A DNA stretch of 64,000 nt, from positions 6,264,001 through 6,328,000 of the forward strand of contig CM075996.1 in NCBI GenBank assembly GCA_038087875.1. Direction: 5' to 3'. The DNA comes from Malacoraja senta (Eukaryota). Shown here in pieces: positions 1 to 50,349 of this stretch. The notes beneath the pieces were generated by a model. The model saw nothing but the letters and a program-made list of their open reading frames with translations. It was not told where the DNA came from and searched no databases. Each line of letters begins with the position of its first letter. The stretch's first letter is position 1. A program made the position numbers and the translations under genes.

Positions 1-148
1 GCTCGCACCGAAGATAGACACAAAGTGCTGGATTAACTCAGCGGGACTGAGTCCGGACCGAAGAAGGGTCTCGACCCGGAACGTTACCCATTCCTTCTCA
101 CCAGAAATGCTGCCTGTCCTGTTGAGTTACTCCAGCATTTTCTGAGAA

Positions 149-268
149 TGATGTATATTCGATGCAAGGTGTAGCTGAAAAACTGCAGTGAAAGTGATGC
201 ATATTTGATGCACATTGTAGCTGGAAAATTGCAGTGAAAGTGATGCATATTTGATGCAAGTTGTAGTT
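149..268. repeat. 46-bp tandem repeat, ~2.6 copies
   Basis: TGATG(C/T)ATATT recurs at 149, 195, 241. Confidence 0.85.
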
Positions 269-872
269 TCAGCTCAGTTTAGTTTATTGTCACGTGTACC
301 GAGGTACAGTGAAAAGCTTTTGTTGCATACTAACCAGTCAGCGGAAAGACAACACATGATTACAGTCGAGACATCCACATCCACAGATCTGTTGGAGTAG
401 AGATTTGAAAGAGTGGAGCGTTTGTAATGTGTGATTGCAGATCCACCTGTGATGAGCATGTAAAGAGCAGCCTGGGCTGGGCACCACCATTAGAGTACGT
501 ACTACAATATAATGAGAGACCAGATTTGGACGCTGATGTTACTGCAGATTTACAACTAATTCAAAACCTGAACTAGATCAGTGCCGATCAGCCCCATTTC
601 AGCCGCCAGGTAATAGCATTGTAGGATTTAATTCCACTTAATGGATTTGACTAATCGTCTTGCTGAGCTCCCCAACCACTGCCACAGGAGCACGTGTCCA
701 CTATGGATTCTGGTTTCATTATCAGCAGCAAACTCATGTGGACAGTCACACGTGGTAAACGATGCTTCAGTCACTGCCATCAGCTCTCCTTTGGAAGGCG
801 AGATCCCACTTACGTAGAAACAGAGAGCATTGGAAACACCCAGCATCTGCGGAGAGAGAAACAGAGTCAATA

Positions 873-1190
873 TTAGTTTAGTTTAGAGACTCAGCGCGGA
901 AACAGGCCCTTCGGCCCACCGAGTCCGCGCCGACCAGCGATCCCCGCATACCAACACTATCCTACACACGCTGGGGACAATTTACATTTATACCAAGCCA
1001 ATTAACCTACAAACCTGTACGTCTTTGGAGTGTGGGAGGGAAACCAAAGATCTTGGAGAAAACCCACGTAGATCACGGGGAGAGTGTACAAACTCCGTAC
1101 AGACAGCACCCATAGTCGGGATCGAACCCGGGTCTCTGGCGCTGTAAGCGCTGTAAGACCACAACTCTACCGCTGCGCCACCGTGCCACC
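873..1190 (-). mobile_element. HE1-like tRNA-derived V-SINE, full length
   Basis: Minus-strand A box GGTGGCGCAGCGG, B box GGTTCGATCCC, V-domain-like core, CR1-like tail with (ctaaa)n. Confidence 0.9.
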
Positions 1191-2471
1191 CAACAAACTA
1201 CAAACGCAGCTCTGTAAGACTTTGGTTAGGCCAATATCATTTGGAGTATTGTGCTCTGTTCTGGAAGGACGTTGAGGCTTGGGAGAGGTTGCAGAAGGGG
1301 GTTGCCAGGTCACTGGAGCTGTGAGGGAGCAGCACTACCTGATGCACCACTGTGCCGCCCAGCGGAGGGGTCTTCAGTTGAATTAATTTGTCTCCACAGG
1401 GTCTGAGCTCAGTGGGAACCACTCTGTGGCAACTTACATCTTACATGGTGTCAGAGAGACACAGCATGGAAACAGGCCCTTCGACCCATCGAGTTCGTCC
1501 TACAACAATTCCATTTAATTCTCCCCATTTCTCATCAACATCTCCCCAGATTCTACCAGCCACATACATTCTAAATTATTCTTAAATTGTGACCCCTTGT
1601 TCTGGACTCCCCCCAACATCGGGAATATTATTCCTGCATCTAGCCTGTCCAATCCTTTAAGAATGTTATATGTTTCTATAAGATTCCCTCCCATCCTTCT
1701 CAATTCCAGTGAATTTCAGGCCGAGACTCTTCTTCAGACTGAGAGTCAAGGGGAAAGGGAAATGAGAGATATAGACGGTGATGTAGAGAGATATAGAACA
1801 AATGAATGAAAGATATGCAAAAAAGTAATGATGATAAAGAAAACAGGCATTATTTGCTGTGGACTAGGTGTGAATCTGGAGGAATGCGTTTTCACACTGC
1901 TAATACGGATAGTGTTTAATTGTCATATGTACCAGCAATGGAACAATGAAAATACATACAGCAGCACAATAGGCCTGTAGACAATATAATATCAATACCA
2001 ATATCAGTTTTATTCGTCACTTGCACATAAAGTGCAAGTGAAATGAATTTGCCAGCAGCGGTACAATGAAAAAAAGAACACACAAAAACACAATAAGAAT
2101 TTAACACAAACATCCACCACTAATTCATCACTGTGGTGGAAGGCACAAAAATTGGACAACACCCCTGGACAACACATAATAAACAAAATAAAATCAATAA
2201 ATTAATAACCACAATACTAGTGCAAAAATGCCAACACAGAGTGCTGGAGGAACTCAGTGGGCCAGGCAGCATCTGTGGAGAGAAATGAACAGGCGATCCT
2301 TCAGGTTGGGATCCTTCTTCAGACTGATGGTCCTGCAATGTCACTGTTCATTCCCACCATAGACATGAGGCATCCCTGAAGTACTGCCGGTGGTGGGGCT
2401 GCGATTCTGACTGTTGCCACAGGAGGCAGGGTAGAGCAGGACCGCTGCTCCCCCCCCCCCCCTTGTCGCCG

Positions 2472-5219: not shown

Positions 5220-6700
5220 ATACATAATCAGCAGTGGTGGACCACAGGGATTGGTGCTAAAAGCCTTTCTGTTTATATATATATATATATATATATTTAA
5301 TTACCTATATGAATGTTGGAAGCATGATTAGTAAGTTTGGAGGTAGCACAAAAATCAACGACGTTGTTCGCAGTGGGGAATCTCATGCGACAGGACGATA
5401 TTGATCAGTTGGCAAATTTAACAAATCAAAGGTAGATTGAATTTAATCACGATAAGTGCGGGTGATGGCACTTAGCATGTGGAATAAAGGTAGAACATAC
5501 ACCATGAATAGTGGATCCTAGGAAGTATCAAGGAACAGATTGGCCTTGGTGTACAGAGTCCATATATCCCTAAAGGTAGCAGAATATGCTGGTAAGGTGA
5601 TGTAGAAACAAGGGACTACAGAGCACTACAGGTTGGGGTGGCACAGTGTTGCTGCCTCTCAACGCCAGAGATCCGGGATCGATCCTGACTATGGGTGCTG
5701 TCTGTACAGAGTTTGCATTTCCCTGTGGAGCTTGCATTTTCTCTGGGTGTTTTGTGTTCCTCCCACATTCCAATGACTTGTAGGTTAATTGGCTTCTGTA
5801 AATTGTTCCCAATGTGTAGGATAGAACTAATGTTTGGGAGATCATTGTTCGCGTGGAATCGGTGGGCCGAAAAGCCTGTTTCCATGCTGTATCTCTAAAC
5901 TGAACTTAAAAAAAGCTGATTTACATAAGAAAACACAACGTGCCTGAGTAACTCAACGGGTCTTGCAGTATCCCTGGAGAATATGGATAGCTGACATTTC
6001 GGGTCTGGACCCTTCTTCAGGGTCCCAATCCGAAACGTCATCTATCCGTTCTCCAGAAATGCTGCCTGACCCACTTAGTTACTCCAGCATTTTGTGTCTT
6101 TAATAAGGTGGTGAAGTGGGTACATGGAAGCTTGTTCCCATTTTAGCAATTAGCTGGGACATAGAATATAAGAGCATGGAGGTCATGGTGCAACCTTGTA
6201 AAATGTCGGTTTGGCTACCAGCTTGAGTATTGTGTGCAGTTCTGCTCGCCATTCAGTGATTGCAGTGGAGTGTGCAGAGTAGATTTTCCGGAATGTTGCA
6301 CGGGACAGAATCTTTCAGTTAATGAGGGGAGACTGGGTAGACCGGTTTTGGAATTTTTGGAATCGAGGAGAGACCTGATAGAGGTATAAATGAATTGTGA
6401 GAATTGTTTCTAAATAACAGAGACAACTAAAATCAGAGAGCATGGGTGTAAGGTGAGAAGTAAGATGATTTGAGGGACCTGAAGATTTTTTTAATCACCT
6501 GGAGGATGGTTAGAATTTGGAACATTGCTGTATGATGGGGGCAGGTACCCTGACAACATTTAAGATCTGTCTGGATGCGCTCGAGTTGTGAATGCCTAGA
6601 AGGCTATGGACCAAATGGTGGTAAATTAGATTCATATAAATGAGTGATCATCAGCACGGATATATTGGGCGGAAGGGCCTGTGTGCATTGTATGACAGTA
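5220..6700 (+). mobile_element. Old CR1 fragment with nested SINE and PLE mini-element
   Basis: gagtattgtgtgcagttctg (EYCVQF) and the 3' UTR signature gggcggaagggcctg. Confidence 0.75.
5635..5905 (+). mobile_element. HE1-like V-SINE inserted in a CR1 fragment
   Basis: Same family as 873-1190, opposite orientation. Confidence 0.85.
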
Positions 6701-6849: not shown

Positions 6850-7470
6850 GGTTATTATTGTCAGATATACTGAGAAACAGTGAAAAGATTTGTTTGCATG
6901 CTATCCTGTCAAATTATACTATACATGAGTACAATCAAGCCATATACAAGTACAACAGGCAGTGCAAAGTGAAAAATACCAGAGTGCAGAATATGGTGGT
7001 ACAGCGTAATGCAGTTACAGAGAAAGTGCAGATTAAAAAGAAAAGTGGCCAGGTCTGCAATGAGGTAGGATGGAAGATCGGTTCTACACCCTTAGATTAC
7101 GGGAAGACCGTTCAGTGATCTAATAACAGCGGGGAAGAAGCTGTGTCTGAATCTGGTGATATATGCGTTCCAGTTTTTGTACCTTCTAGCCGACAGGAGA
7201 GGGGAGAAGAGGGAATGACTGTGGTGAAAGTGATTATGTTGGCTGCTTTCCCGAGGCTGGTGAAGTGCAGATATAGTCGATGGTGGGGAGTCTGGTCAGT
7301 GTGATTGACTGGGCATCATCTACAACTTGAGCAGAGCTGTTGCCTAACCAAGCTGCGATGCATCCTGATAGGATGCTTTCGACAGTACCTCTATAGAAGT
7401 TGGTAAGAACCATTGGAGACATGCTGTAGTTCCTTTGTCTCTGAAGAGAATAGAGGCGTTGGTGCATTTT
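6850..7470 (-). mobile_element. Rex1/Babar-clade LINE 3' fragment
   Basis: QRLYSLQRQRNYSMSPMVLTNFYRGTVESILSGCIAAWLGNSSAQ; tgacaataa-type tail. Confidence 0.75.
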
Positions 7471-8215
7471 CTTGGCCACAAATGGGATGCCCAACTGGAT
7501 TGTCATGTATCTCAGGGCTTTCATCATTTGCTATGCTTGCAACATATCACAAAATTGTTTTCAAAAACCTCTGGCAAATATTTGTTGTCAAGTTGGTATG
7601 CAATGGTAGATTTCTTGTTGCTGGAGCTTCTTGTGGAAAAGAAAGCAATAGAGTGAGTCCCAATTCAGTGCTTAATTCATTGTGGTTCCTGCTCACTCAA
7701 AATTATGAGTAGCATCCCCTTCTTGATGCTTTCTTTTCCTTTTAGTTACAGTTCAGTTGATATCTGTGCAGCTCTTGAAGTTGAGATTGTATTTTTTAAG
7801 TTTTGTTTGTAATGCATTGATTTATTCTGGAAACCCTACAGGTGGTTTTGATGGTGACCACAGAAATTCCAAATCTGCAATATTACCAGTCTAATTCAGC
7901 CTCTCCTTAATATTATTACCACAAGATCTTCATTTTTTCCTCTCTCATATTTATGCGTATCTTGTTTTTCGTCCCATTTTTGTCTGAGCTTGCACACTGT
8001 CCTTTTTCCACCACCATCAGCCCATCCTTGAGACGCGTGGGATTGGTTTGTATATTATGAGTTCTAAAAGCCATATGCAGAATTCTGAAGGCGTAACGTA
8101 AATTCTGCATGGCACGCAAATTTATCAGCAAAAATAAATAAATAATCACTTTGCCAAAACCCCCTCTGAGATCATGAAGCCCGCTTTCATAAATTAAAGT
8201 TTGTTCTTTACACCC

Positions 8216-8531
8216 AGTTTAGTTTAGTTCAGAGATACAGTGTGGAAACAGGCCCCGTCGGCCCACCGAGTCCGCACCGACCAGTGATCCCCGCAAATTA
8301 ATACTATCCTACACACACTGGGGACAATTTACACATACACCAAGCCAATTAACCTACATACCTGTACATCTTTGGAGTGTGGGAGGAAACCAAAGATCTC
8401 GGAGAAAACCCACGCGGTCACGGGGGGAACGTGCAAACTCCGTACTGACAATAGTCGGGATGGAACCCGGGTCTCCAGCACTGCAAGGGCTGTAAGGCAG
8501 CAATTCTACCGCTGCGCCACCGTGACCGCCC
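8216..8531 (-). mobile_element. HE1-like V-SINE
   Basis: Colinear with 873-1190. Confidence 0.9.
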
Positions 8532-9115
8532 AGTGATGGTGGCTGTGCTTTTCTGTGAGCTTTGTTTACACAAATAGCAAGTACAAGCTGGGACAGTGCA
8601 GCATTTTATTCCACTGTTTGCATGCCTCGTCACCTTCCGTTCAGCCAACAATGAACCAATCTACATTTCCTTGGACATCGTCTGCTTTAATCTGTCTTTT
8701 TCACACCTTACCCTTCCATATCTCTAGTTTCCCTATCCCCTGACTCAGTTTGAGGAAGGTCTTGACCTGAAACCTCACCAAGAAATGCTGCCTGTCCTGC
8801 TGAGTTACTCCAACTCAGTGTCTACAGTGCAGCAGTTGGGTTAGGGAGGAGGATTTTCTTTGCCCCTTTATTTATTGGTTACAATAAAAAAAACTCATGC
8901 CCTCTACTCACCAGAAAAAAACCTAGATTCAATCCTAGTTTTGTACTTAGTTAGTTAATAAAATGGAGCTCTGATTATCTACGTTTTATTGTTCTCTGTG
9001 GTATAATTATCAGTGGTTTACAAGTTTACAAAATAATCCTGGGTAATATATATTGCAGAACTAACACTTAGTGTAGGAAATGATCTGTTCATTTATTTCA
9101 TTGCTGCGTGAAGGA

Positions 9116-9428
9116 TTTTACTTTACTTTGGACTTTAGAGATGCGGACACAGGCCCTTGTTTGTCTGAGCCCAGTGAGTCTGCGCAGACCAGCGATCACC
9201 CCATACACTAACACTATACTACACACTAGGGATAATTTTACAATTTTTACCAGAGCCAATAAACTTACAAACCTGTAGGCTCTTTGAAGCTTGTGAGGAA
9301 ACCGTAACACCCAAAGGAAACCGTAACACCCAAAGGGAGAATGTACAAACTCCGGACAGATAGCACCCATCGTCAGAATTGAACCTGGGTCTCTGGCGCT
9401 GTAAGGCAGAAACTCTACCACTGTGCAC
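9116..9428 (-). mobile_element. HE1-like V-SINE
   Basis: Colinear, with a small internal duplication ggaaaccgtaacacccaaagg. Confidence 0.85.
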
Positions 9429-10630
9429 TGTTTTTTTTATAAAACTATTTTGTCTTTCAAGTAGTGAAAACAGTATAATTTCAGGGCAGAAGTGAACTTT
9501 TATGAGGTTGGGAAAGATAGTTTCATCAATGAGCTTTTTTTCATTCCACTGTCTTGTTATACTTGATACTGAGCTTTGTTTCTAAGGCAATCTCATGGAA
9601 TCAAAGGGGATTTACTTCCACTCTGGTGTTATGGATTCTAAGATGGCAAATCGTGCATTGCAAGAGGCCTAGATTGTTCTTTAGATGGGGTAGGTGGATG
9701 GACAGCTTGTGATGTAGTCAGCTAGTTCCGCCACTTACGCAGGGCTTCTATGTGCTCTGGATGTATGGCCTCAAGGTTCTCAATATCATCCTAAATGCTC
9801 CTTCTCCACTTTGAGTGGTCATAGGTTAGAGGCTCCCAAGAGTCCGTTGTATTTCTTTGAGGAGGCTTTAAGAATAATCCTTGAATTTATTTTCCTCAAT
9901 CCACCTCATAATCACTCCCAGTGACAGAACTTGGAATAGGGGTCTGGTGTTAGGCACGCAAAGGACGTGACCGATATCAACTAGGGCCTTAATGCTGTGA
10001 AATTTGACCTGGGAGAAGTCACTGTTCTTGGTTCGCTTATTCTTCCAATGAATTTGGTAGATTCTGCCGAGGCAGGTTTGGCGGTGTTTTTACTACTTGT
10101 TACATAGTGAGAAGAGGTCTTGAATGATGCAGCTGTATGGTAGTGTTCCTGTTAAGAACAAGGGGGCTGGCTATGGAAGAGTAGGAGAGAGAGGGTATAT
10201 GGAGGTGTGGAACATGAGAAAGGGGAGGTCCTGAATGGAAGGAAGGACAGAGTGAAGAAGGTTAGAGGGAAAGGCAAATGAGATGATGTTGGGGATAATG
10301 AGTCTGAGGAGGGAGTGGATTAGGGGAAGGGTCTGGACTGAAGAGAGTGTGGGGGAAAGATCAAATGAGCTTGTGCTTTTTAATCTGTGCGCGAGGTCAG
10401 TGTGGAATGTGAGCATTTGTGTGTGAATACATGTTAAGTAAGTGCAGCAGAATTTGGTTTCTATATGAGTTGCCATATTATCAATAGCTCATTCTGCCAA
10501 AAGTGTTGTAACTGATGTACAACGGTCACCCCAAATTATGAAAGAGCAACCAGGTGGATCTTGAACGACTCGACGTGAATTCAAGACCTGAAACATCAGG
10601 ACCTCATGGACAGACTGAAGTGATAGACTA

Positions 10631-11059
10631 AGTTGAGAACAAGCGTAGGCTTGGCGATCATTTCGCCGAACACCTCCGCTCGATCCGCATTAACCAACCT
10701 GATCTCCCGGTGGCTCAGCACTTCAACTCCCTCCCATTCCGAATCCGACCTCTCTGTCCTGGGCCTCCTCCATGGCCACAGTGAGCCGGAAATTGGAGGA
10801 GCAGCACCTCATATTCCTCCGCTTGGGCAGTCTGCACCCTAGCGGCATAAACATTGAATTCTCCAATTTCCGGTAGCCCTTGCTGTCTCCTCCCCCTCTC
10901 AGCTCTCCCTCAGCCCTCGGGCTCCTCCTCTTCCTTTTTCCTTTCTTCTCCCCACCCTACATCAGTCTGAAGAAGGGTTTCGGCCCGAAACGTTGCCTAT
11001 TTCCTTCGCTCCATAGATGCTGCTGCACCCGCTGAGTTTCTCCAGCACTTTTGTCTACC
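10631..11059 (+). mobile_element. Penelope-like 3' fragment with hammerhead motif
   Basis: Matches the 3' part of the element at 17982-19109; perfect 14-bp TSD gaagtgatagacta at 10617 and 11060. Confidence 0.9.
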
Positions 11060-13569
11060 GAAGTGATAGACTAGATTATTACCCTTTATCATAACCTGAC
11101 AACTTGGATACTCCATTGTTGACATGAATGCCCTGAGTGAGACATGGCACAAGAAAAGACCAGTTCAGAAAGCAAGGTGGCAGTACACCTGGAAGGGCAA
11201 GTCGGAAGATGAATACCATCTTCTCGAAGAAACAAGGAACTGTAGGTGCCGGTTTCCCAAGGAAAAACATCTTGAAGTCAGCTTTATTTTCATTAGTGAG
11301 TTATTCTGGTCCTCCGCGATTGCTGCCGTGGCATAGGCAAATTTCTCATAAGAGGTCTGCAGGATAGAAAAGCCACATCAAGGGTGTTCTCAGTGTCTGC
11401 TTGGAGAAATGTAGCATCTTCACTGCTTCTGACGAATTCCTGACCATACCACTCAAGAGCATTCAGGAGGTGCTATGTATCTCAAGACTTGACAGTAGGA
11501 GCTTGGGGAGGCCAAGTGAAAACAGTGAAAGGAAAGTGCAGCATCTCCACCAACTATCTCACCCGCTCTAGCAAGCTCCACGGTTGCAAATTTGCAATGT
11601 TTGCACTCCTCAGTCACCACAGGAGGTAATGGATGCAAGTCCCTGGTCATCCTAGTCCCAGATGGCCTGCTTGTAATGAGCGTAGTAAAAATGATCTGTG
11701 GATGTTAATTGATATTTATATACTGAAGGTCATATCTGTTGATGGGAGCTATGATAAGCAGCAGTGTTGAGTGCAGAACATATGCTGAGTGCCCATATTT
11801 AATTACAAGATTTAAAAACTGGCAGGATCTGGTAATTGGCGTTCTGAATAACAGCAACTTTATACGATTGGAGATGTGATTCCTGGCCACGTATGTTGAG
11901 GACAATGGATAATTGGTTGATGATGAGAACGATGAAACTAAGCAGCGAGATTGAGAACGAGGGAAATTATAGGGAACAAATTAGAAATGAAGGAAAAAGT
12001 GGAAATGAAAACACTGGTGCTTGGTTGACTGAGATACAGGTTCTATGCTTATGAGTATCAAGGTTGTCTCTAAGTTTATGAATGTAAAAGCCACTAAAGC
12101 TGTCCTTGCAATGGTCATGCTTGGTGAATCCTTGTTGAATCCTTCATTAAAGGAGATTGGTTGCTGCTGGATAGTTTAACCTTGCGGGGGGCTTCTATCT
12201 TTTGTAATTAACTTTAGATCAGGATTCACCTAGATTATTTTGCATTTGAGCAACCTCACATAGTTAGCTCAGATCAAAATTGAGAAGAGTTATAGCTCCT
12301 ACTATGGGAATACTCTACATTAACTTTGGAATTAATAGAAAGAAGTATTCTTTAAAATTATTATTTGCATATGTTGTGATAATGTATGGAAAGTATGGGT
12401 TTTGATCTGAAGAATCTGTCTTGACTTTTCCTCTGCCTTTCCAACTCCATCACCAAGTCATCTTATTGTTCAGATGTGGTATTATTACCCAAATCCTCAT
12501 TTATCAATATTTGGGAACTGCAGGTAGACACACAATTCTGGAGTAACTCAGCGGGACAGGCAGCATCTCTGAATAGAAGGAATGGGTATTGGAACTGCAG
12601 TAGGATTGATCACAATCACTGCTCATAATATTGAGTAAAGTTTTGTACCCAAACAATGCACAGAGTAGGAAAACATTGGATTATAAAGTAGTTTTAATCT
12701 ATTCTATAATCCAAATAGGTAATATTTAGAGATTCTGTGTAAGTATTTTATTTTCCGATTACACCAAGAATGTATTTAAACTCTCAGATCCCCAAAAGAA
12801 TAGCAGTAATATCTGTCGATACAAACTACAAATGCTGGAATCTCGAACAAAAAAACAAAGTGCTGGAGGGACACAGCGGGTCAGGCAGCATCTGTGGAGG
12901 TAAATGGACAGCTGATGTTTTGGATCGAGCCCCTTCTTCAGACTGATGGAGTAGAGGGGAGAAAGCTGTTTTCCATCAGTCTGAAGAATAGTCCTGACCT
13001 GAAATGTTTCTCCATTTGCCTCCATAGATGTTGTTTAACCCACTGAGTTCTTCTAGCACTTTGTTTTGCAGTAATGTTGTCATTGCAGATAGTGAATTGA
13101 TATAATATTGTTGCCAATTACAGTGTAGGAGATCCTCCAATATAAAAAACCCGATATGCACCTTGCTATGTGGAAACTCCTGACCAAAATATTTATTGGA
13201 TTTAACTCATTATCTTTAATTATTTATTTTTAATTTCTGACTTCAATTTCCTTAGACCCCAGTTTCCCTCTTAACAATTTTAACCCCACTGAGTTTGAAC
13301 GATAAGCTTGTAAAGCATGCACTTTGCAAACTAGCAGTCAAGGCCATAAGGATAAGGAAAGGAAGATACTTGAATGACGTATGTGGTGGCCAGTTTCATG
13401 CTCTGCTGATATCATTCACATTGTACATTTATGTGGCACAGTTAGTATAAAAAGTGCCAAGATGCTTCATCAAGGTGTACTCTCAAACGGAGGGGTTTTA
13501 GAGCTATGTTTATGGTGACTTAGTGGTCAAGTTATTGGACTTCTACTCAAAATTATTATGGAACTTGGA

Positions 13570-21059: not shown

Positions 21060-21230
21060 CTCTGAAGAAGTGTCTCAACCCGAAACGTCACCCGGGTCTG
21101 AAGATGGGCCTCGACCCGAAACGTCACCCATTCCTTCTCTCCAAAGATGCTGCCTGCCCCGCTGAGTTACTCCAGTTTTTTGTGTCTATCTTCGGTTTAA
21201 ACCAGCATCTGCAGTTCCTTCCTACACATA
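21060..21230 (+). mobile_element. PLE pLTR-end insertion with two head-to-tail hammerhead motifs
   Basis: ctgaagaagtgtctcaacccgaaacgtcaccc followed directly by gggtctgaagatgggcctcgacccgaaacgtcaccc. Confidence 0.8.
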
Positions 21231-33523: not shown

Positions 33524-33837
33524 CTGCACTTTTAGTTTGTTAGCTAAGACAACTGTGCATTGAATAGGATTCTGGAGAGAGCACTGCATATTTAACGAGA
33601 ATTTAGAGAGCACAATTTATTTAGACACATTCCAGGGTATCCAAATATTTTATCAGGGAGAGTATATTATTTTAGACATTTTGTAGAAAATAACTGTGAA
33701 TTTAATTCTAAGATGTGTATTTTTTCAGTTTCTAATGCTATTGTGCATTTAATCAGAATCTGGAAATGTGTATTTAATTAGATTGAGACAATGATGTATG
33801 TAATCGAATTCCAGATATGTTTCTGTGTATTTACAAG

Positions 33838-34131
33838 GTTTAGTTTAGTGTAGTTCAGAGATTCAGCCCTTCATCCCACCGAGTCCGCGCCGACCAGCAA
33901 TCCCCGTACACTAGCACTACACACTAGGGATAATTTACCACCAAAGCCAAATTAACCTATAAACCCGTACGTCTTTGGAGTGTGGGAGGAAACCGGAGCA
34001 CCTGGAGAAAACCTGTGCGGTCGCAGGGAGAACGTACAAACACCGTACAGACAGCACCCGTAGTCAGGATCGAACCTGGGTCTCTGGCCCTTTAAGGCAG
34101 CAACGTTACCACTGTGCCACTGTGCCGCCCA
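33838..34131 (-). mobile_element. HE1-like V-SINE
   Basis: Colinear with 873-1190. Confidence 0.9.
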
Positions 34132-35009
34132 CTTGTATTTAGTTAAATTCTAGCAATAATATTGCGTACACGATCAGTTGTAGAGATGCTGCTGTGTGCA
34201 TAGAACATTGCAGCACTGGCATATACAAGGCCCCCAGATGTGTGGACTACTCTCGCAGAAGCAGGCATCCCTGCTCATAGCATGCCTACTCGCTGACTGT
34301 GGAGTTTGCCATCTAGAGTCTAGGATCTCGACCTACTTGATCTGGTTCCAGAGGTAGCGCTGCATATTTAATAATTGTTAGCGAAGATGCTAGCAATTTG
34401 ATCGGAATCTAGAAATAGTTCTGTGTATTAATTTTTTTAATTTAACTTTGGAGAAGTTGCTGAATATTTAAAAATACATTGGAGAGATTGCAGTGCCTTC
34501 AATAAGGCACCCAAGAGGTTGAAGAGTCAGTGTTTTGAATTTACTTAGATTCCAGAAACATTATGTTGTATTGAAATGGATTATATAGATGGTGCTATGT
34601 GTAGAATGACATTCTGTGTTTCATTTAATTCTGGCAAAAGATTTCAGAACAGCGCATTTGTCAGTCAGTCCATTCAGTTCAGTTTATTGTCACGTGTACC
34701 GAGGTACAGTGAAAAGCTTTAGTAGTTTGCCAACCAGTCAGCAGAAAGACAATACATGATTACAATCGATCAATTTACGGTGTATAGATACACGATAAAT
34801 TCCAAGGATGTATTTTTATTTAATCAGAATCTAGAGATGGTGTTGTGTTTTTAATTGAATATTACATTGTTGATATGTATTTAGTTATAAAAATGATGCC
34901 ATACATTTAATGACATTTGGAAGTGGTGCTTTGTATTTAAACAGTTTCTAATGACAGTGCTTTTAACTGAATTTTAGAACAGTGCCCTATATTTAACCAA
35001 ATTCTAGAG

Positions 35010-36080
35010 AGTAGTACAGCACGGATACAGGACCTTAGGCCACCATTCCATGCTGACCATCGTGGTCTGTAGATCCCATTGATCATTATATGATCTGTAG
35101 TCTTTTACTCTATGCCGATTCTGGTGCTTGTCCAGTTCTTAAATCTTATGAGAGTACTTGTCTGCGCCACTTTTTCAGGTAGTGCATCCAGAGTGCAATT
35201 GCCCTGTAAGTAAACTAAACACATACTCAGATCCCCTCTAACTCCGAACCTTAAAACTATCCGATGTGGTTTTTGTTGTTGCTGTTTATCTTTTACTATA
35301 GTTTCTATTGTCCACTCTATCAATGCCTGTCATAATTTTGTATATTTGCATCAGGTCCCACTTCCGACTTCTCTGCTCAAAGGAAAACCAATCCAACCTA
35401 ACCAATTTTCATAACTGAAGTGTTCTAACCTGGAAAATCTTCTGCACATTCTCCAGAGGAATCACATTCTGTATAGTCTGGCGACCAAAACTGCACATAA
35501 TACTCCTGCTGTGGCCTGACTAGCACCTACATTCTATGCCGTGGGTAATAAGGAAGGCAAGCATCCCAAATGCCTTCTTCAACACTTTTAGGGATATGTT
35601 TACCTGTGCATAAAGGCCACTTTGTTCCTCAAAACTCCCTAAGATCCTACAATTCATGGTGTATATACTGCTCTTATGTATCTCCTCATACCTATCAGGA
35701 CACATCTGACATTGCTCTGCCCATTTTATTAGTTGATCATTATTGTTCTTTAGCCTTAAAGTATCCCCGTCACAAACAATAAACCTCCAATTTTCAGAAG
35801 AAGGGTCTCGACTCGAAACGTCGCCTATTCCTTCGCTCCATAGATGCTGCCTCACCTGCTGAGTTTCTCCAGCATTTTTGTCTACCTTCGATTTTTCCAA
35901 CATCTGCAGTTCCTTCCTAAACCACCAATTTTCATGTCATTTGCAAACTCATTAATCATATTGCCTGCATTAATATCCATTAACGATCCCTGTTGTGCTC
36001 CACTAGTCACAGGCTTCCAATTGCAAAACCAACTTTGCTCCATCACCCTCTGTCTCCTATTATCAAACCAACTTTACGTG
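35010..36080 (-). mobile_element. Old CR1 fragment
   Basis: Reverse-strand CR1 RT motifs (KAFGMLAFL..GIECR). Confidence 0.75.
35797..35918 (+). mobile_element. PLE pLTR-end insertion inside a CR1 fragment
   Basis: gaagaagggtctcgactcgaaacgtcgcc then tail; TSD aaacc(t/a)ccaattttca at 35781 and 35919. Confidence 0.85.
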
Positions 36081-37340: not shown

Positions 37341-39239
37341 ACTCCTAATCTCCTTTCCTTTCTGTCTTTTCTTCCGATTCTATCCTTTCATTGCTGTGTG
37401 GCTGATCTAATTCTAGAGGCAGTGTTGTGTACTATTGTCCAATCTTATGTTATGCATAAATATCTTAGAAATGTAATTAGATGCCAGCATGTTCACACCA
37501 ACAGAGTAGCTGCCAGTTCTGGACAACATAGCCCTACTTATTTACTTATCCAGCATAACTTACAAGATAGGATCAACATCCCCACTTTCAAAGGCTTGGA
37601 AATCCACAACAGATGTACTTTAAATCGCACATATTATTTTTTGGAAAAAGCTGCTGACCTCCTTATTGTGAGTAAAAACCAAGTATCCATATGGAAGGAT
37701 CTGTGGGGCACATCCAGTACAATCATTAATATTTCACCATTGATCTTTCAGTATGAATCACTGGCTGCAACCCTCTTCAATTGAGCCACACGAGACTGCA
37801 GATGCTGGAATCTTGAGCAAAAAACAAACTTGGAAAACTCAGTGGATAAAGTCTGCTGAGCTCCTCACTTGGTCTCATCCAGACTATGGGCAATTTGCCG
37901 CATTCTCCACAGATGGAAAGCACTTGGTGATCTAAAACTTGATGCTGATTAAGTGACGCTAAAACAAGGAACACGATACCTCAACCTACCCATTAAAATC
38001 TGTTTTCTCCACTTGGCATTTTAGGAAGCAGTTGCTTGGATTGACTGTCTGGACATACATGTGTGTTGCATATGTGTAGGAAAGAACTGCAGATGCTGGT
38101 TTAAATCGAAGATAGACACAAAATGCTGTAGTAACTCAGCGGGACAGGCAGCATCTCTGGAGAGAAGGAATGGGTGCCATTTTGGGTCGAGACCCTTCTT
38201 CAGAATGAGGTTCTGTAGCATATCTTGCATTGTGAAAGAAGACGATCAAATTCCAGAAATACTGCTGTGTATTTAAACACATTGCTTTACAGTGCTGTGT
38301 AATTAATTCACAGACGATATTTGTTTAATTACCTTCCATGCATGGTGAAGTATTTTAACCGGTTCACAGGGACTAATTAAATTCTAGAGAAGGTGTTGTG
38401 GACTGGCTTCTGGAGATGCTGTGCAGGTAGTCAAATGGTTAAGATGCTTCTGTTAATCAATTAAACTCTAAAGTGAGTGGGATGTATTTGTTCTGTCCTT
38501 TGAGAGATAGATGTATACAGAATCAGGATTTTTGTGATCTTGCTCCATATTGAAGAAAGTTCGAGAGAAGATGGTGCATATTTGATCAGATTCCAAGGAT
38601 AGTGCTGAAGAATTAATCAGATTATGTGATGTATATAATTAGATTCCTGGGATGATTCAATCAAAATTGTAAAATGGTGCTCCTATTTAATCTGATTTTG
38701 AAGATAATATTATCTTTTATTAAATTCAGATTCCCGAGACATCACTGTGAATGTAATCATACTCTGGAGATGGTTCAATGTACTTGATCAGAAGAGGACC
38801 TGGTGGATGTACAGGCCATCCCAATGCCGTGGCTAGTCAGATGCCTTTCTCCCTTGCAGAATTAGCAAATATCAACCAAAAATCTGAGATGCAGAATAAA
38901 ATTTGCTGTCAAGGAATTTATTTGAAAACTTTTTTTTCAACTTGCGTTTTTCAACATATGAGCAGATGACACATCATGTTATAGAATATCACAAAATGGA
39001 ACATTAATATGGTTGGGGGGGGAGATGTCTGTACTTAGATTTCCAGAAGGCATTTCAAATAGTACCACGTCAAAGATTATGTTGAAAATAATGGTGTAGG
39101 TAGTAACATATTGGCATGGATCACATATTGACTTGAAGATTTGCTGGCTAAAAGAGAAACAAGAGTAGGCATAAATGGATCATCTTTAAGTTGGCATGAT
39201 ATAACAAGTGATGTGCCGCAGGAAGCTATGCACAATGTG

Positions 39240-39899: not shown

Positions 39900-40455
39900 C
39901 TAAGCACGTTTGTTGTTGTTGGTGCCTAATTAATCAAATTTATTTTTGAAATTACACATGTAATTAGAATTATTATCGATAGTTTCTGTCTAAGTAGATA
40001 TGTTTTTGGTGGTGCCAGAACAAGCAGATAGATTAATGATAGATAGATTTATGTCAAATTAAATTAATGGATCAAGGGTGGATTTCTAAATAATGATGCG
40101 TCAAATCAGATTAATTGATGGAGTATACTGGACAATATTAATTGATAAATGTGCATATCTAATTGACGAGGATGTGTGTTAAATCAGATTAACTGATGAG
40201 GGTATTGGGTAAATCAGATTCATTAATGATCACGTGTGTGAAATCAGACTCATTGATGAGAATATGTGTCCGATCAGACTCTGATGAGAGTATATGTCAA
40301 ATTGGATTCATTGCTGCTTGTCTAATCAGATTCATTGGTATTACATGTTTCATAATTGAGGGGTGTTCCAAGCAGATTCCTTAACGATGCTGCATCTAAC
40401 TAGATTCATTGATAATGGTGCATGTCTAGTCAGATTCATCAATGATTCTTTGGTG
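39900..40455. repeat. Degenerate ~28-bp minisatellite (approximately TAATCAGATTCATTGATGAGGGTGTGTC)
   Basis: aatcagattc/attaattgatga recurs at regular spacing. Confidence 0.75.
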
Positions 40456-40574
40456 ATAACTATAGTGGAACCTTTGGGGCTCAAGGAGCAATGGCAAAGG
40501 AACAGAAACAGAGTGCTGATGAATGGTTGCTCCTTGGACTCACCTGTGTTCCATCTGCGATTGTTATCCCGAGC

Positions 40575-40960
40575 TCCCAGTTGCATATCCCTCCATAGCC
40601 TTCTCCACTGCCATGGTGAGACCCATTGCAAACTAGAGGAACAACTTGTCATATTCCACTTGGCTAATTTACATTCCAAACGTATCAACATTGGATTTTA
40701 CAGTTTTGGGCAACCTTCCCCACCTGTCAATTTTTCCCACTTTTGTCCCCTTTCCCATACTACCCTCCCCTCAGGCCACCCATCACACTTTTTTTATCTC
40801 CCCCCTCTTGTGTTTCCATGCACTTGCTGCACACGCACATTTTATCCACAGGCTCACCATCCTCCCAAATCTGGTTCTAGTTTTATCTGCCCCCCCCCCC
40901 CCCCCCCCTAATGTTCCCTTCCTTATTTATCAGATTCCAGCACTGGTGGCCTTTGTGTCC
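40575..40960 (+). mobile_element. Old, degraded Penelope-like 3' fragment
   Basis: LLHCHGETHCKLEEQLVIFHLANLHSKRINIGF resembles the GIY-YIG C-terminus of the younger copies. Confidence 0.7.
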
Positions 40961-41399: not shown

Positions 41400-42280
41400 A
41401 TTTGGATAAATGTTTTGGACATGACAAAGACATTTGTAGATAATACAAAAATAGTTGTTCATGGTTGATATTGAGGGGAAAAGATTTAAGATGTAAAAGG
41501 ATATCAATGAACTTGTCAGTTGGGCAGAAAAGTTACATTTGGAATTCCATCTAGAGAAATGTGAGTATACAGTAAACTGGAGGATACTGAGACGTGTGAA
41601 GGATAAGAGGAACTTTTGGATGTATATCCACAAATTCATAAATGTAGCAGAATAGATTATGGTGTGGTTAGGAAAACATACAAGATGCATTCCTTTATTT
41701 AGTCAAGATACAAAATGTAAAAGCAAGAATGTTAGGCGAAAATTATAGGCAACACTAATTAGATCATAACTTGAATTCTGATAAAGTGTTATGAACCTGA
41801 ACTGTTGATCATATTTCTGGCTTCTCGGGTGCTGTCGGACTTTCTAAGTATTTGCAGCACTTACAGTTTGTATTTCAGATTCTGTAGTTTTGGGGATTTT
41901 GTATACAATGGGCAGTTCTGATCAGCATCAGTGTAATTGTACCAAAGAGAACGCAGAGAAGATTAATACGAATTTTACCGGGACTGGCAAGATATAACTG
42001 AGGAAAACTTGGTTAGCCTGGGACAGAAGAGATTGAGGGGAGATTGAATTGAGGTGTTATTATGAGCAACCCAGATAAAAGGGAGGACTCATTTCCCTTT
42101 GTATATAGTTAAAAAACAAGAGGGCAAAGACTTAGATTAATTGATGGAAGAATTGGAAGAAAGACAATGTACATGGTGGTAGAGGGAGATATCCTCATGA
42201 TGGGTACATGGATGCTCACTTGAAGAGCTATGATACGCAGAGGCTTCGGACCTTATCTTGAAAGATGGTATTAAACTAGG
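41400..42280 (+). mobile_element. Very old CR1 fragment
   Basis: Degraded W..K....F..EKCE and downstream motifs. Confidence 0.6.
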
Positions 42281-42282
42281 TA

Positions 42283-42470
42283 TAGACACAAAATGCTGGA
42301 GTAACTCAGCGGGACAGGCAGCATCTCTGGAGACAAGGAATGGGTGATGTTTTGGGTCGAGACCCTTCAGACTTCAAACTTCTCTCCAGAGATGCTGCCT
42401 GTCTCGCTGAGTTACTCCAGCATTTTGTGTCTATCTTCGGTTTCAACCAGCATCTGTAGTTCCTTCCTAC
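42283..42470. mobile_element. PLE-derived inverted mini-element
   Basis: Inverted arms; TSD gtattaaact(a/g)ggta at 42268 and 42471. Confidence 0.85.
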
Positions 42471-42972
42471 GTATTAAACTGGGTACAATTTCTTCATCCA
42501 TGGTGGATATGTTCAGCCTGAGAGCAGGAGGAATCACAGAGGGGGTGTAGCTCTATGCTATGTACCTTTTATATCTCTTGTTTCCCTTTCCCCGGACTCT
42601 CAGTTTGAAGAAGGGTCTCGACTTCAGACGTCACCTATTCTATTTCTCCGGAGATGTTGCCTGAGCCGCTGAGTTACTCCAGCTTTTTGTATCTGTCTTC
42701 TGTTTAATCCACAACCTGAATACTGGAAATTACAATGTTAATACCAATGTCAGAACACCTTCACCAGCAGATAAAACTAGTAGCAGATAAAACTGGATAA
42801 ATCTATCATTTTTCAGTGAAAAGTTTGTATCACTTTCTAATTTATAAACTTCCTGTTTCTGATCTGTCCCTTGTGAACACTATGACAGATTCTGTTATTC
42901 CATCTTTGCCAGGAGATCTAAAATTCTATCATGTTTTTGTTAATTTGCTGTTTAAGTCTAAAAAGCAGATCT

Positions 42973-43800
42973 GTGTAGGAAAGAACTGCAGATGCTGGTT
43001 TACACCGAAGATAGACACAAAATGCTGGAGTAACTCAGCGGGACAGGCAGCATCTCTGGATAGAAGGAATGGGTGATGTTTTGGGTCGAGACCCTTCTGC
43101 AGTCAGTCAGGGGAGAGAGAGACACAGGGATAAAGAAGGGTAAGGTGTTGGAAAAAAGGAGATGATCAAGGAAAATGTAGAATAGATCATTGTTAACTAG
43201 GAGAAGGTGACAACGAAGCATACAGAGATGAAAATTAATCAGGGGGGCAGTCAGACTGGTCGGAGAACTAGGAAGGGGAGGGGATGGAGAGAAAGGGAAA
43301 GCAAAGGTTACTTGAAGTTAGAGAAGTCAATATTCATACCGCTGGGATGTAAGCTGCCCAAGCGAAATATGAGGTGGTGTTCCTCCAATTTGCGCTGGGC
43401 CTCACTCTGACAGTGGAGGAGGCCCAGGACAGAAAGGCCAGTATGGGAATGAAAGGGGGAGTTAAAGTGTTTAGCAATCGGGAGATCGGGTAGGTTTCGG
43501 TGGACTGAGCGGAGGTGTTCAGCGAAATGATTGTCGAGCCTGCGCTTGGTCTCACCGATATATAGGAGTCCACACCGGGAACAGCGGATACAGTAGATGA
43601 GGTTGGAGCAGGTGCAAGTGAACCTCTGCCTCACCTGAAAAGATTGTTGCGGTCCTTGGACGGAGTCGAGGGAGGAGGTATAGGGACAGATGTTGCAGGG
43701 GAAAGTACCTGGGGAGGCGATGGTTTGGGTGGGAAGGGACAATTTACACAGGGAGTTGCGGAGAGAACGGTCTCTGAGGTAAGCGGAAAAGAGTGGACCT
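42973..43800 (-). mobile_element. Penelope-like element fragment with open GIY-YIG reading frame (43308..43742)
   Basis: QRFTCTCSNLIYCIRCSRCGLLYIGETKRRLDNHFAEHLRSV; pLTR and tail at 42973-43105. Confidence 0.92.
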
Positions 43801-44564
43801 GGGAGGTGTGGAGGGTATGTGTTGGGTTATTCAGAAAGATTTCCATCACTGGCTACAATATAGTGTGTTGCAATATGGCCAGTTGCTCTGCTTTATTCAA
43901 GACAAATTCTTGTTTTCTCCTGTGCCAGAGTATGTTTCACTAAAGAAGTTGCTTTGTTGTGCCAATGCATGATGTGAATGGAGACATTGCCCCAGTTGCT
44001 TTGTCATCAAAAATAACTTTGTGTTCTGCAAGTATGGAAAATGGTGAAGGTAGTTTTGACAATAACAATTTTAATTTTCTAATCCCTCAAAAGTTTGACC
44101 TATGACTTGATATAAATCAATGGAAGTGCTTTGTAGTTAGAAAAGTTGTGAATAGAATTGTTGGTAAATAATCACACGCTTGACTTTGACCGGAGAAATG
44201 TTCATTGATGAATCAGCTATAAATTGTCAGGCCAATGACAGATGTCTGAATACATCCAACAACTACTTCCCTTTGTGCAACTTATCACACCATCTCCATA
44301 GTTTTTAATCTTAAATGTTAAACTAAACTATTTTCTGTTTGCTAAATTGATTACAATAGACCGCATGGTACCATATGAAGAAGAGGAAGTCTGATATGAT
44401 GTACTGGCCAACATTTCTCCCACAACTGTGCCACCATCTGATCAAAAGTCAAGATGTTTTATTGTCATATGTCCCGAAACAGAATGATAAAATTCTTACT
44501 TGCAGCAGCACAACAAACATGTAAACATAGTATGTTGTAAAACCATAATAAACAACAACAAAGT

Positions 44565-46105: not shown

Positions 46106-46350
46106 ACTCAATGTTAAATAATATATACAGATTCTCGAATGCAGTGAGAAGGGTTAACATTGACTCATGGGATCAGTAAAATGAGTCAGTCTTAGCTCAT
46201 AAGGATCAAAGATTCACTTGAAAGGTAGTTTGTGGTGTATTTACCCACATGGAAATATAGATGTGATTTCTATTCCTAGACAGCACTTGATGAACTGAAT
46301 GTTGCATAATCCAATAACTAAATAAAAACCCTAGTTGTACTTAAAAATTG

Positions 46351-46632
46351 AGGTGGCACAGTGGCTCAGAGGTAGAGTTGCTGCTTTACATTGTCAGAGG
46401 CCTAGGTTCGATACTGACTACGGGTAATGTCTGTACAGACTTTGTATGTTCTCCCCGTGATCCCGTGGGTTTTCTTCGGGCGCTCCGGTTTCCTCACACA
46501 TTCCATAGATGTGCAGGTTTATAGGTTAATTGGCTCCTGTAAATTATCCCTAGTGTCTCGAGTAGAACTAGTGTACGGGTGATCGCTGGTCGGCGTGGAC
46601 TCGGTGGGCCAAAGGGCCTGCTCTAAACTAAA
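46351..46632 (+). mobile_element. HE1-like V-SINE
   Basis: ggtggcacagtggctcagaggtagag head and ggttcgatact B box. Confidence 0.9.
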
Positions 46633-46883: not shown

Positions 46884-46968
46884 TGTCAGTCTGAAGAAGG
46901 GTTTCGGCCCGAAACGTTGCCTATTTCCTTCGCTCCATAGATGCTGAGTTTCTCCAGCACTTTTGTCT
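46884..46968 (+). mobile_element. 85-bp hammerhead-containing PLE mini-insertion
   Basis: cagtctgaagaagggtttcggcccgaaacgttgcc; TSD aca(a/g)catattagga at 46870 and 46969. Confidence 0.85.
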
Positions 46969-47600
46969 ACAGCATATTAGGAGTTATCACAAGCTCTAAT
47001 GTAGCAATCTCCAGTTTTTAATGCATCATGGTAGAAATTGCAGAATTTGTGAGAGATTCAAATAAATTCCAGGGATCTCCAACGTATTTTTATGGTGTAG
47101 GGTCATAGTATTGTCAAAGAGTAGCTTAGAGCCAGAGTTCTAAATCTGTCTTTTATTGAATGTTCACTTACACCCACTGCCACAGCCTGCAATCTCTCTC
47201 TATTTATAATGTAACAAGTAGCCCATGTGGAATATCATTGTGGTTCAGTGATGGCAATCATATCTCTGTGCCTGAGCCTACAGGTTCCACACTTGGAAAC
47301 TCATTATTAACTTTTCTGGGAACATTTGGCAGGTCAGGCAACATCAGTGGAAAGGGAAATGGAGTTAGTATTTTAGGTCGAAGATACTTCTCAACCTGGA
47401 CTGGCACAGGTATCCTGTTCTGTTGATTCAAGTGGAATATTTTGAAGAGAATTAGGAAATACAATGATCAACATTTCTCTTTAGACTTTAGAGATACAAC
47501 AGGGAAACAGGCCCTTTGGTCGACCGTGTCTGTGCTGACTAGCGATCACCATGTACACTAGCACTATCCTACACATTAGGATCAATTTACAGAAGCCAGA

Positions 47601-48641
47601 ATCTCAAGGAGAGATAGCTGAATAGATAGGAAATTGGCTTCATGGAAGGAAGCAGAAGGTGATGGTGGAAGGTTGCTTCTCAGACTGGAGGCCTGTGATT
47701 AATGGTGCTGGGCCCGTTACGGTTTGTCATCTATATCAATGATTTGGATCAGAACATATATGACAAGATTAGCAAGTTGGCTAATGTTACAAAAGTGGGT
47801 GGTTTTGCAGATAGTGAAAAATTGTTGTGAGAAATTGCAGCAGGATCCTGATCGATTGGCCAGGTGGGCTGAGGAATGGTTAATGGAATTTAATACAAAG
47901 CAATGTGAGGTGTTGAATTTTGTGAGGTCTAACATAGGCAGGACCTACGCAGTGAATGGTAGGCCTCCGGGGAGTGTTGTAGGGCAGAGGGATCTAGGAA
48001 TACAGGTACACGGTTCCTTGAAAGTGGAGTGACAGGTAGATAGGATGGTCAAAAAGGCTTTTGGCACATTGTCCTTCATCAGTCGGAGTATTGAGTACAG
48101 ATGTTGGGAGGTCGTGTTGCAGTTGTATAAGATGTTGGTGAGATCACATTTAGAGTATTGTGTTCAGTTCTGGGCACCATATTATAGGAAAGATGTTGTC
48201 AAGCTGGAAAGGGTACAGAGAAGATTTACGAGGATATTGCCAGGACTAGAGGGTCTGAGCTATAGGCAAAGGTTGAGTAGGCTGGTACTCTATTCTTTGG
48301 AACGAAGGAGGATGAGGGGTGATCTTATAAAGATGTATAAAATCATGAGAGGAATAGATCCGGTAGATGCACAGAGTCTCTTGCACAGAATAGGGGAATC
48401 GAGGACCAGAGGACAGGATTGTGAAGGGGAAAATAATCTGAGGGGTACCTTTTTCACACAGAGGGTGGTGGGTGTATGGAACAAGCTGCCAGAGGACGTA
48501 GTTGAGGCTGGGACTATCCCAATGGATAGGACAAATATGGAGGGATATAGACCAAACGCGGGCAGGTGGGACTAGTGTAGCTGGCCGGTGTGGGCAATTT
48601 GGGCCAAAGGGCCTGTTTCCACGCTGTATCACTCTATGACT
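47601..48641 (+). mobile_element. CR1-clade (HER1-like) LINE 3' fragment, degraded RT
   Basis: LQQDPDRLARWAEEWLMEFNTKQCEVL and LYKMLVRSHLEYCVQFWAPYYRKDVVKLERVQRRFTR; ctctatga tail. Confidence 0.92.
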
Positions 48642-48643
48642 CT

Positions 48644-48823
48644 ATAATTAACCTACAAACCTGTGCGTCTTTGGAGCGTGGGAGGAAACCAGAGCACCCG
48701 GTGAAAACCCACGGGGTCACGGAGAACGTACAAACTCCATACAGGCAGCACCCGCAGTCAGCATTGAACCCGAGTCACTGGCGCTGTCAGGCAGCAACTT
48801 ACCGCGGCACCACTGTACCGCCC
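48644..48823 (-). mobile_element. HE1-like V-SINE 5' half; its 3' half is probably 47481-47600, on the other side of the CR1
   Basis: 47481-47600 ends at gaagcca and 48644 resumes at attaacctacaaac, which are adjacent in intact copies. Confidence 0.75.
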
Positions 48824-50349
48824 TTATTAATGAACATCTCATTGTTCTTAGAAAATCCATCTGCTTTTTAGAAGTTAGTCATTTATGTCTAAATGAAAAT
48901 TCCAGAGCATTTATAATGGCATGAAGTAATTGGAGATGACTTGAGGTGATGTAGTGAACCATGATTTTCTTTTCTGAATAATCGGTTGTAGCATGTCATA
49001 GTTTGGTGGTGTCCGTGTGGCAGTGTTGGTGATGGTGTTGTAGTCGGTTGGAATCTGTTCATGTTGCACGGTGTCAGACTATAGCATCTATGTTAGTGTG
49101 CTGGTTTCTGTTAGTTCTCTTACCGTGTGTTGAGTTGTTAAGGTACAGTTTGTTGAGTGTCTATAATCAGACAACAGTAGGTGCTTCATTGTGTCAGCTT
49201 GTGACGTCTAACAGCATGGGCTGCAATATCCATCCTGCCGTTTGCTGGCATCCTAACTGGAATGAATGGCTGCTATTTGCATTGCCTGGCAACATCTCAC
49301 CAATTGCATCAGATTTATGATGGAACTTTGTAGTCCCTCCTAATAGCAAGTCCCACACTGTTCGTACAGGGGATGAGATATTGTCCCTGTCTCTGTTGTT
49401 TCTTCCCCCCCACACACCTTCCCAAAAGAAAAGTCTGAAGAAAGGTCCCAATCCGAAAGTCATTTATTCATGTTCTCCAGGGATGCTACCTGATCCGCTG
49501 AGTTACTCCAGTACTTTGTGTCCTTTTCCCCTAAAAGAAAACTTTGTTTTCACATCATTGAGTGATACTTTACAGTTGTGCTGAATCTTTCATGTCTGAT
49601 TTTTCAAAAGCTGAAAACTACTTCAATTCAAAGTTGACTTTCCTTCATAATTCTGATTATGGCAGTAAGCACAGTCACATCCAGATCTTAAATAAATTAA
49701 TCCACTTTATAAAATGAATCCCATTGTAATTTTAAGAAGAATCATGTAGCTGGTAACCTAACTAATTCTAAGGTAGATTATGACATTTTGATTAGTATAT
49801 AATGGAGGTAAAGCAAACATCATTGGGAAATGCAATCTAAGAAAAAGTGTGCTGTTAAGAATTTATTCAATGTCATAGTTTTATGCTCTATCATAGTATA
49901 ACAAATCTATAATTGTCACCAAATTATTTTATCAATGTGAATTATTTTTTAAGTAGCATCTGTAAAGTCATCAAGTTAAATCATTTTTCAGATGGGGTCT
50001 GATTCTTAAAGAGTGTAGGGCTGACCAAGTGGCTGTATTACCTAGCCAATTCCATAGTGAGGTTGTCTTGGTCCTGCCATGACATTAGTTTATCCACCAT
50101 TTTCCCATTCTTGGCTTCGATAAGGGTTGAAATTGCCACTTAATGTTCAGTGTAATAAAGTGAATGAGAATAAAAGGTTGTAGGGGCTTCAATACAAATT
50201 GTCAGGAATTATTATTAGTTAGTGGTCTTTAGGTAAGAAATAAATATTGTGTTGTGCAAGGCTGCAGAAAAGTTGATCTGATGGGTCTGAGTGGAAAGAG
50301 GGAGCTCACCTTTGTGAACATGTCACCTCCTTTCTCTCCCGGATACTGT

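Follow-up and report, generated by a model that had tools for sequence, protein, structure and literature searches.

Abundant hammerhead motifs in the Malacoraja senta genome as a possible fossil record of Penelope-like element copying

Minimal type I hammerhead ribozymes have been described in the pseudo-long terminal repeats (pLTRs) of Penelope-like elements (PLEs), and Cervera and De la Pena in 2014 (PMC4209133) reported their genome-wide abundance as the principal finding, with counts of about 4,000 in the coelacanth and about 9,000 in X. tropicalis. According to the supplement of that paper, the consensus combines a U-rich 5' flank with CUGANGAH, a G-C-closed helix II, and GAAA-N-NU-H; a helix I of 2 bp occurs among the published cases. 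The monomers did not cut and the dimers cut weakly (PMC4209133); dimer cleavage was also reported by Lunse et al., as cited in a review (PMC6765202). Here, we analyzed a stretch of 64,000 nt from Malacoraja senta (hereafter, the window), together with the 1.94 Gb of its genome. The motifs in the window resemble the published ones (PMC4209133) in the CUGANGA box followed by an extra base, the G10.1-C11.1 pair, GAAA-CG-UH, the lack of a real helix III, the pyrimidine-rich 5' flank, and their occurrence mostly as solo copies with some opposite-strand pairs. The stems differ in their length, with 4 bp in stem II and approximately 2 bp in stem I, at the short end of the published range. Supplement file 2 of PMC4209133 holds no shark, skate, Leucoraja, or Callorhinchus entry, and a search by titles and first lines of abstracts found no literature on such motifs in cartilaginous fish or on a strong-stop reading of them.

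The element carrying the motifs resembles the endonuclease-bearing (EN+) PLEs of the Neptune type (Craig et al. 2021, PMC8557442) in its reverse transcriptase (RT), its CX4CxxC linker, and its C-terminal GIY-YIG domain, and also in 5' truncation, partial tandems, inverted pLTRs, and an optional tail of 30-40 bp. The strong preference for truncation at the 5' edge of the hammerhead seen here is not described in the consulted part of that account. PAc, the Poseidon element of Anolis (Frangieh et al. 2024, PMC11167929), likewise has two fixed 3' ends a tail apart and gives no sign of cut RNA as template; its hammerhead cut only with the protein, and core mutants inserted normally. In this element of another clade, which was tested in vitro, the open reading frame (ORF) starts in stem II; in the present element, the motif precedes the start of the coding frame by well over 100 nt. 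Non-LTR retrozymes (bioRxiv 10.64898/2026.07.22.740005), reported also in one chondrichthyan, are likewise PLE-derived non-coding repeats with type I hammerheads; every unit of their head-to-tail arrays carries a hammerhead, whereas the copies described here are solo or head-to-head.

We consider it probable that the motifs are minimal type I hammerheads in the pLTRs of a PLE encoding RT and GIY-YIG, and that the scattered copies represent decaying terminal fragments of it, most of which would not cut RNA. More tentatively, at a probability of roughly 0.45, the short copies (stubs) would constitute a genome-wide fossil record of the Penelope cycle, reflecting priming at two sites, run-off at a capped start at -2 in a strong-stop-like manner, twin priming, and an uncut template. 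Positions are numbered with core C3 as +1, the preceding base as 0, and H17 as +28, the cut being expected between +28 and +29.

A scan with three window copies as seeds, allowing up to 7 mismatches, gave 22 matches in the window, compared with a mean of 0.03 (maximum 1) in 30 dinucleotide-type shuffles. A catalogue seeded with the downstream part plus the core contained 40 rows, including some reverse-strand echoes and core-less stubs. Twenty-seven rows lay within 9 mismatches, and 12 of these retained all core bases, with the CUGANGA, GAAA, and UH boxes (the full core) in type I order; 11 of the 12 possess at least three of the four stem II pairs, and 8 also the palindromic ACGT. All 23 sites that a sequence-only reading of the window had listed, plus one at 58, were located within about 30 nt. 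The full core is intact at only 11 of the 23, and thus the strict motif given in that reading holds for a minority of the sites. Sites 49435 and 42373 are more decayed than the seed matches and were recovered only in the catalogue, which also yielded an unlisted core-intact copy at 12981. No copy with a recognizable core was found beyond 49.5 kb of the window; the loose matches at 53381 and 54431 proved to be coding exons of a Not3-domain gene and not hammerheads. A hammerhead model scan, as that reading had proposed, gave no match to the Rfam families at gathering score in the window, and therefore the identification rests on the published descriptor and not on Rfam. Judged by their match to this descriptor, the window motifs are minimal type I hammerheads of Penelope pLTRs, in agreement with the sequence-only reading.

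The stems were compared in the window and in a genome sample of 100 evenly spaced 10-kb stretches (1 Mb), which held 65 intact motifs; in addition, 157 copies were grouped on their downstream sequence into seven subfamily clusters. The extra base between positions 9 and 10.1, expected from the earlier reading and known from the published motif, is present in the aligned copies, as is the G10.1-C11.1 pair. The palindromic ACGT (15.1-16.1), which would form helix III in a dimer, occurs in five of the seven cluster majority lines, including all four large clusters, and in 40 of the 65 intact copies, which bears out the predicted palindromic stem III. Stem II is paired in 94% of the cells across 22 aligned window copies, but the change is one-sided at all four pairs and no both-sided change was observed. 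The covariation score was equalled by 380 of 500 shuffles; the subfamilies may be too closely related for covariation to become visible. Stem I is as weak as had been suspected: it is paired in 43% of the cells over four positions in the window copies, and its contiguous length in the 1-Mb sample is 2 bp in 38 of the 65 motifs, at most 2 bp in 55, and at least 3 bp in 10.

Five motif copies in the window sit 3' of endonuclease remnants; of five remnants scanned, three matched GIY-YIG below the Pfam cut-off and two had no match. The same arrangement was seen at 18 of 20 genome loci with long ORFs, chosen among the scored relatives of the remnant at 18155-18889, where the motif lies approximately 100-200 nt behind the end of the ORF. 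Measured from the stop codon of the element, the distance is 85-130 nt. One of these regions, locus L031, contains a near full-length element, composed of a truncated pLTR, a second tandem pLTR, a body of about 4 kb, and a 3' pLTR that is 98% identical, with a motif in each pLTR. Its open frame of 968 residues matches RVT_1 (E=6.5e-6) as well as GIY-YIG (E=1.2e-3), neither of them reaching the Pfam cut-offs, and includes DKG and YIDD, which we take to be RT motifs, and a CX4CxxC linker between RT and GIY-YIG; the N-terminal part of the protein lies in a second, overlapping frame. The Atlas neighbors of the protein at 0.98 carry RVT_1/GIY-YIG/HTH_animal. Tandem and inverted pLTRs, an optional tail, and target duplications, all traits of EN+ PLEs, are found as well. 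From its sequence, the parent is an EN+ PLE with a single protein combining RT with a GIY-YIG domain at the C-terminal end. A CX2-5CxxC linker between RT and EN marks Neptune and is shared with Nematis (PMC8557442), and this one linker motif suggests a Neptune-type parent. The element (L031:1337-5917) lies inside the 3' pLTR belonging to an older PLE copy, and a short duplication, approximately 9 bp long, was recognized by eye. Its proline-rich N-terminal region (L031:2400-3450) contains tandem repeats of 27, 42, and 69-78 nt, and an upstream ATG frame is present in the pLTR.

In the whole genome, 167,009 core-intact motifs (core boxes at this spacing) were counted, compared with 773 in the reversed control, corresponding to one per 11.6 kb; the very high number anticipated from the window is thus real. 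Requiring the core, stem II, and ACGT exactly left 56,799 motifs against none in the control. The 1-Mb sample contained 27 exact matches, consistent with 29 per Mb genome-wide, together with 65 matches to a generic descriptor (2-5 in shuffles) and 371 to the downstream module, from which about 720,000 module copies are extrapolated. Comparison of 167,009 with the published counts is rough, because the published descriptor is stricter and also demands helix I. Solo copies, opposite-strand copies, and genome-wide spread are already published; since this holds for the abundance itself, the phenomenon is not new in kind, and only its scale is larger.

Numbers of this size, along with the abundance of the module in contigs from sequencing runs presumed, not proven, to be RNA, and the cutting by the PAc hammerhead when protein is present (PMC11167929), might suggest a reservoir of working ribozymes, in which dispersed copies cut host or repeat transcripts by pairing in trans or over long range. 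We regard such a reservoir, which the sequence-only reading had envisaged, as most improbable. In 66 long copies, picked regardless of core state, G12, which lies in a CpG, is kept in 66%, compared with 78% and 59% for non-catalytic CpG Gs; the other core bases are kept in 87-93% and the flanks in 81-87%. The decay of the core is thus close to plain background decay, and covariation is absent. The pairing probability of stem II is approximately 0 in five of six folded copies, and stem I exceeds 2 bp in only 10 of the 65 motifs. The active dimer has -4.7 to -7.1 kcal/mol and the best dimer -20 to -29 kcal/mol, so that the active fold is predicted to be disfavored by 15-22 kcal/mol, in nearest-neighbor energies that ignore tertiary contacts and proteins. 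Fold-back pairs, which are frequent, reach -167 to -178 kcal/mol and would bury the motif in a duplex of about 95 bp. Same-strand partners are rare: only 1 of 11 same-strand neighbor distances among the 65 intact motifs is below 1 kb. The published monomers were inactive, and even the dimers were poor cutters (PMC4209133).

After removal of 14 matches at stretch edges, 357 of the 371 module matches could be used for the 5' ends; 160 of their alignments end between -8 and +7, and 66 run beyond -12. In 74 short non-inverted copies, identity to the consensus is still 60% at -2 and drops to 44% at -3 and 41% at -4, reaching background thereafter; the corresponding values in 50 long copies are 76-82%. 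Exact genome counts of one young core sequence decrease from 19,101 (started at +1) to 13,305 (-2), 10,265 (-4), and 9,068 (-6), the last drop being partly due to subfamily variation and inversions; for about half of this young subfamily, the start lies no more than 5 nt upstream of the core. The counts around the cut site are 31,388 (+31), 30,638 (+29), 29,977 (+27), and 27,933 (+24). The decrease across the cut site is 2.2%, compared with 2.4% over the two bases before and 6.8% over the next three, and hence there is no excess of starts at the cut site genome-wide. At the other end, 3' end points cluster at +92-96 and +124-132, about 35 nt apart, and 58 of 65 family-A copies end at +87-97 or +121-132. 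Both 3' ends have counterparts in PAc, namely its tail and its two internal RT start sites, and we infer priming at two internal sites. An exact target duplication of 8-21 nt was detected by a narrow search in 8 of the 65 family-A copies, with the junction at -3 to +1. At loci L159, L176, L086, and L175, short repeats of the first bases of the module lie between the target duplication and the stub, as if RT had jumped back to the 5' end of the RNA more than once.

A copying cycle that would produce such ends can be proposed as follows. RT would prime at one of the two internal sites, as shown for PAc, and copy an RNA that is still uncut as far as its 5' end. This end is likely a transcription start within the TCAGT just before the core, which presumably resembles an initiator. 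An initiator-like TCACT is known in a rotifer pLTR (PMC3846280), and the Penelope element of D. virilis has an internal TATA-less promoter (PMC2377424). Most copying events would stop at the RNA start and leave stubs of 95-130 bp. If both target strands are primed, as shown for PAc (PMC11167929), two self-complementary cDNA ends could be joined, either at the near-palindrome that surrounds the base preceding the core or at the stem II palindrome, and this is the likely origin of head-to-head pairs. A start at -2 would leave the hammerhead with a 5' arm of only 3 nt, keeping it off until the protein or a read-through RNA remodels it; the hammerhead of master elements would need to form a dimer in order to work, likely helped by the protein of the element.

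Alternatively, the 5' boundary may be set at the level of DNA or RT, the endonuclease cutting the near-palindrome TCAG-N-CTGA of the element itself or RT stalling there instead of running to an RNA end. The genome contains 1,059 exact head-to-head junctions centered on position 0, on the palindrome, and a second inversion class at the stem II palindrome; moreover, the DNA of its own pLTR is cut by PAc in vitro (PMC11167929), and palindromes at pLTR 5' ends are published (PMC3846280). On the other hand, among 129 short copies with stem II, plain flank is joined in 74 and an inverted partner in 55, and short copies keep AGT far more often than TCAGT. We give this explanation a low, though not negligible, chance.

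It is quite unlikely that the 5' boundary is a splice acceptor and the stubs derive from spliced RNA. Long copies do have a pyrimidine tract and CAG one base before the core, the intron of D. virilis Penelope ends at helix I (PMC4209133), and in older subfamilies a GT overlaps the stop codon (16 of 53 copies). This GT is, however, missing in the other 37 of the 53 copies with the stop in place. The target duplications abut the boundary without an upstream exon (the 8 copies described above), and no GT-AG joint ending there was seen among 15 of 37 joints, which come from contigs only and are a weak test. An intron between the stop codon and the core was likewise considered and rejected, as its donor is lost from the youngest copies.

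The roughly 720,000 module copies, most of them without coding sequence, could also be taken as an independent, self-copying family similar to short interspersed elements (SINEs) or retrozymes. This is very unlikely: short and long copies have diagnostic sequences and both 3' ends in common, the 5' ends of the stubs are ragged, and tandem arrays of short units were absent from the 1-Mb sample. Head-to-tail units of the retrozyme type amounted to one 36-nt tandem pair in the window and one pair closer than 1 kb in the 1 Mb.

Several points weigh against the copying cycle and the decayed state of the copies as proposed here, besides the simplified energies and the single linker motif noted above. 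Forty-seven percent of the young core copies continue upstream, and the start site of the element is read from DNA copies, whose 5' ends spread over several bases rather than one. In the sample, 10 of 357 ends lie exactly at the cut site (+29), compared with a neighbor mean of 2.4 (Poisson p=2e-4), and a class of 1-2% of copies may start there. Four or five of these 10 are internal deletions by eye, and the peak, which is absent genome-wide, is attributable in part to deletions linking a short repeat within stem II with one immediately past the cut site. As for the core, the retention of its non-CpG bases exceeds that of the flanks by a few points, and among the four clusters with at least 20 members it differs at 0 of 11 positions, compared with 16 of 64 downstream (p=0.057). 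This invariance of the four majority lines hints at selection in the masters only. The core conservation across subfamilies that the sequence-only reading had set as a check is seen in the large clusters but falls short of p=0.05; two of the three small clusters have A at G12. A tandem array on C1 that seemed to begin at the cut site turned out to be a segmental repeat of 2-2.5 kb in which the copy carries a mutation at U16.1; for this array (about 3.87-4.04 Mb, L178), about two dozen units are listed with one stub each, and some units carry a second stub on the opposite strand.

The long copies in the window are PLE 3' fragments. A 5'-truncated coding remnant with the linker Zn-finger and GIY-YIG endonuclease (18155-18889, +; ORF, Pfam GIY-YIG E=6e-4, below cut-off) precedes a motif with intact core, stem II, and ACGT (18985-19012, +), the module of which extends to about 19110 with the long 3' end and tail. 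In a protein search of the same genome, 150 relatives of this remnant, scored out of 111,320 first-look candidates, are 90-93% identical. The fragment at 10634-11059 (+) comprises the endonuclease end, the pyrimidine tract, an intact motif (10967-10994), and the short 3' end; that at 25339-25913 (+) has a GIY-YIG remnant and a motif (25818-25845) with an intact core that has lost the stem III palindrome. On the minus strand, 42969-43826 has a GIY-YIG remnant and a broken motif (43075-43102), and 30740-31589 has a motif without G12 (30740-30767) and an endonuclease remnant that has no Pfam match and was assigned because its DNA is 76-82% identical to that of the other fragments. An older endonuclease-end remnant lies at 40360-40911 (+), and no motif was found behind it.

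Five of the six inverted pairs in the window, which have no single orientation, are single insertions with duplications of 8-15 bp. Two are head-to-head fold-back pairs: 27200-27443, centered one base before the core (motifs 27273-27300, -, and 27302-27329, +; 9-bp target duplication), and 33290-33537 (motifs 33366-33393, -, and 33395-33422, +; 14-bp duplication). The pair at 28621-28834 is joined within stem II and lacks the CUGANGA box (15-bp duplication), and that at 42268-42480 has broken cores (42346-42373, -; 10-bp duplication). Of two old pairs, 12803-13075 combines a motif lacking G12 (12914-12941, -) with a core-intact one having two of four stem II pairs (12981-13008, +; 8-bp duplication), and 5931-6099 has a core-intact motif (5993-6020, -) with no duplication found. 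The sole close same-strand tandem pair (21062-21228, +; motifs 21062-21089 and 21098-21125, spacing 36 nt) has both cores intact with three of four stem II pairs each; as a double hammerhead it was rejected, since the predicted minimum free energy structure is not the hammerhead fold. The short solo modules at 46886-46970 (+; intact motif 46891-46918) and, with a tail, 35793-35925 (+; motif 35795-35822, U4 lost) both have 10-bp duplications. The remaining copies are short modules at 58-146 (+, core broken), 2233-2322 (-, A15.1 lost), and 15628-15703 (-, G12 lost), those with a tail at 28937-29068 (-, G8 lost) and 38070-38203 (-, core broken), a broken motif remnant at 1710-1737 (-), a module with a pyrimidine tract at 42564-42711 (+, core broken at 42605), and an old short module at 49435-49531 (+), in which stem III is short by one base and the first stem II pair is lost.

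Another dispersed family, SINE-like in its size of about 300 bp, occurs in the window in ten copies (869-1192, 5638-5909, 8216-8532, 9126-9431, 24652-24847, 33838-34147, 46335-46632, 47470-47598, 48646-48824, and 52844-53157). Remnants of the long interspersed element (LINE) type lie at 30014-30725 (-), 47703-48575 (+), and 7234-7530 (-), with Pfam matches to zf-RVT at 30014-30523 and to ALKBH8_N at 7234-7530; 48033-48575, which has no Pfam match, is presumably CR1-like. Two coding exons of a CNOT3-like gene are found at 53363-53431 and 54383-54457 (+; PF04065, above cut-off). A GC-rich 44-nt tandem repeat of 4.5 copies (2476-2672) lies where the window is richest in GC, possibly in a promoter region.

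Neither new chemistry nor a host function follows from the counts. The number of 167,009 matters for ribozyme searches, which such genomes would swamp with dead copies. PLE hammerheads persist across animals, yet insertion in vitro did not require cutting (PMC11167929). The present analysis adds whole-genome counts, on an in vivo scale, for two boundaries, the cut site and the 5' edge of the core. In a subfamily with about 31,000 exact matches, the cut site can be the starting point of at most about 2.5% of the insertions, and in about half of the copies with an intact core the start falls immediately before the core; the few starts at the one boundary and the many at the other favor uncut RNA as the template.

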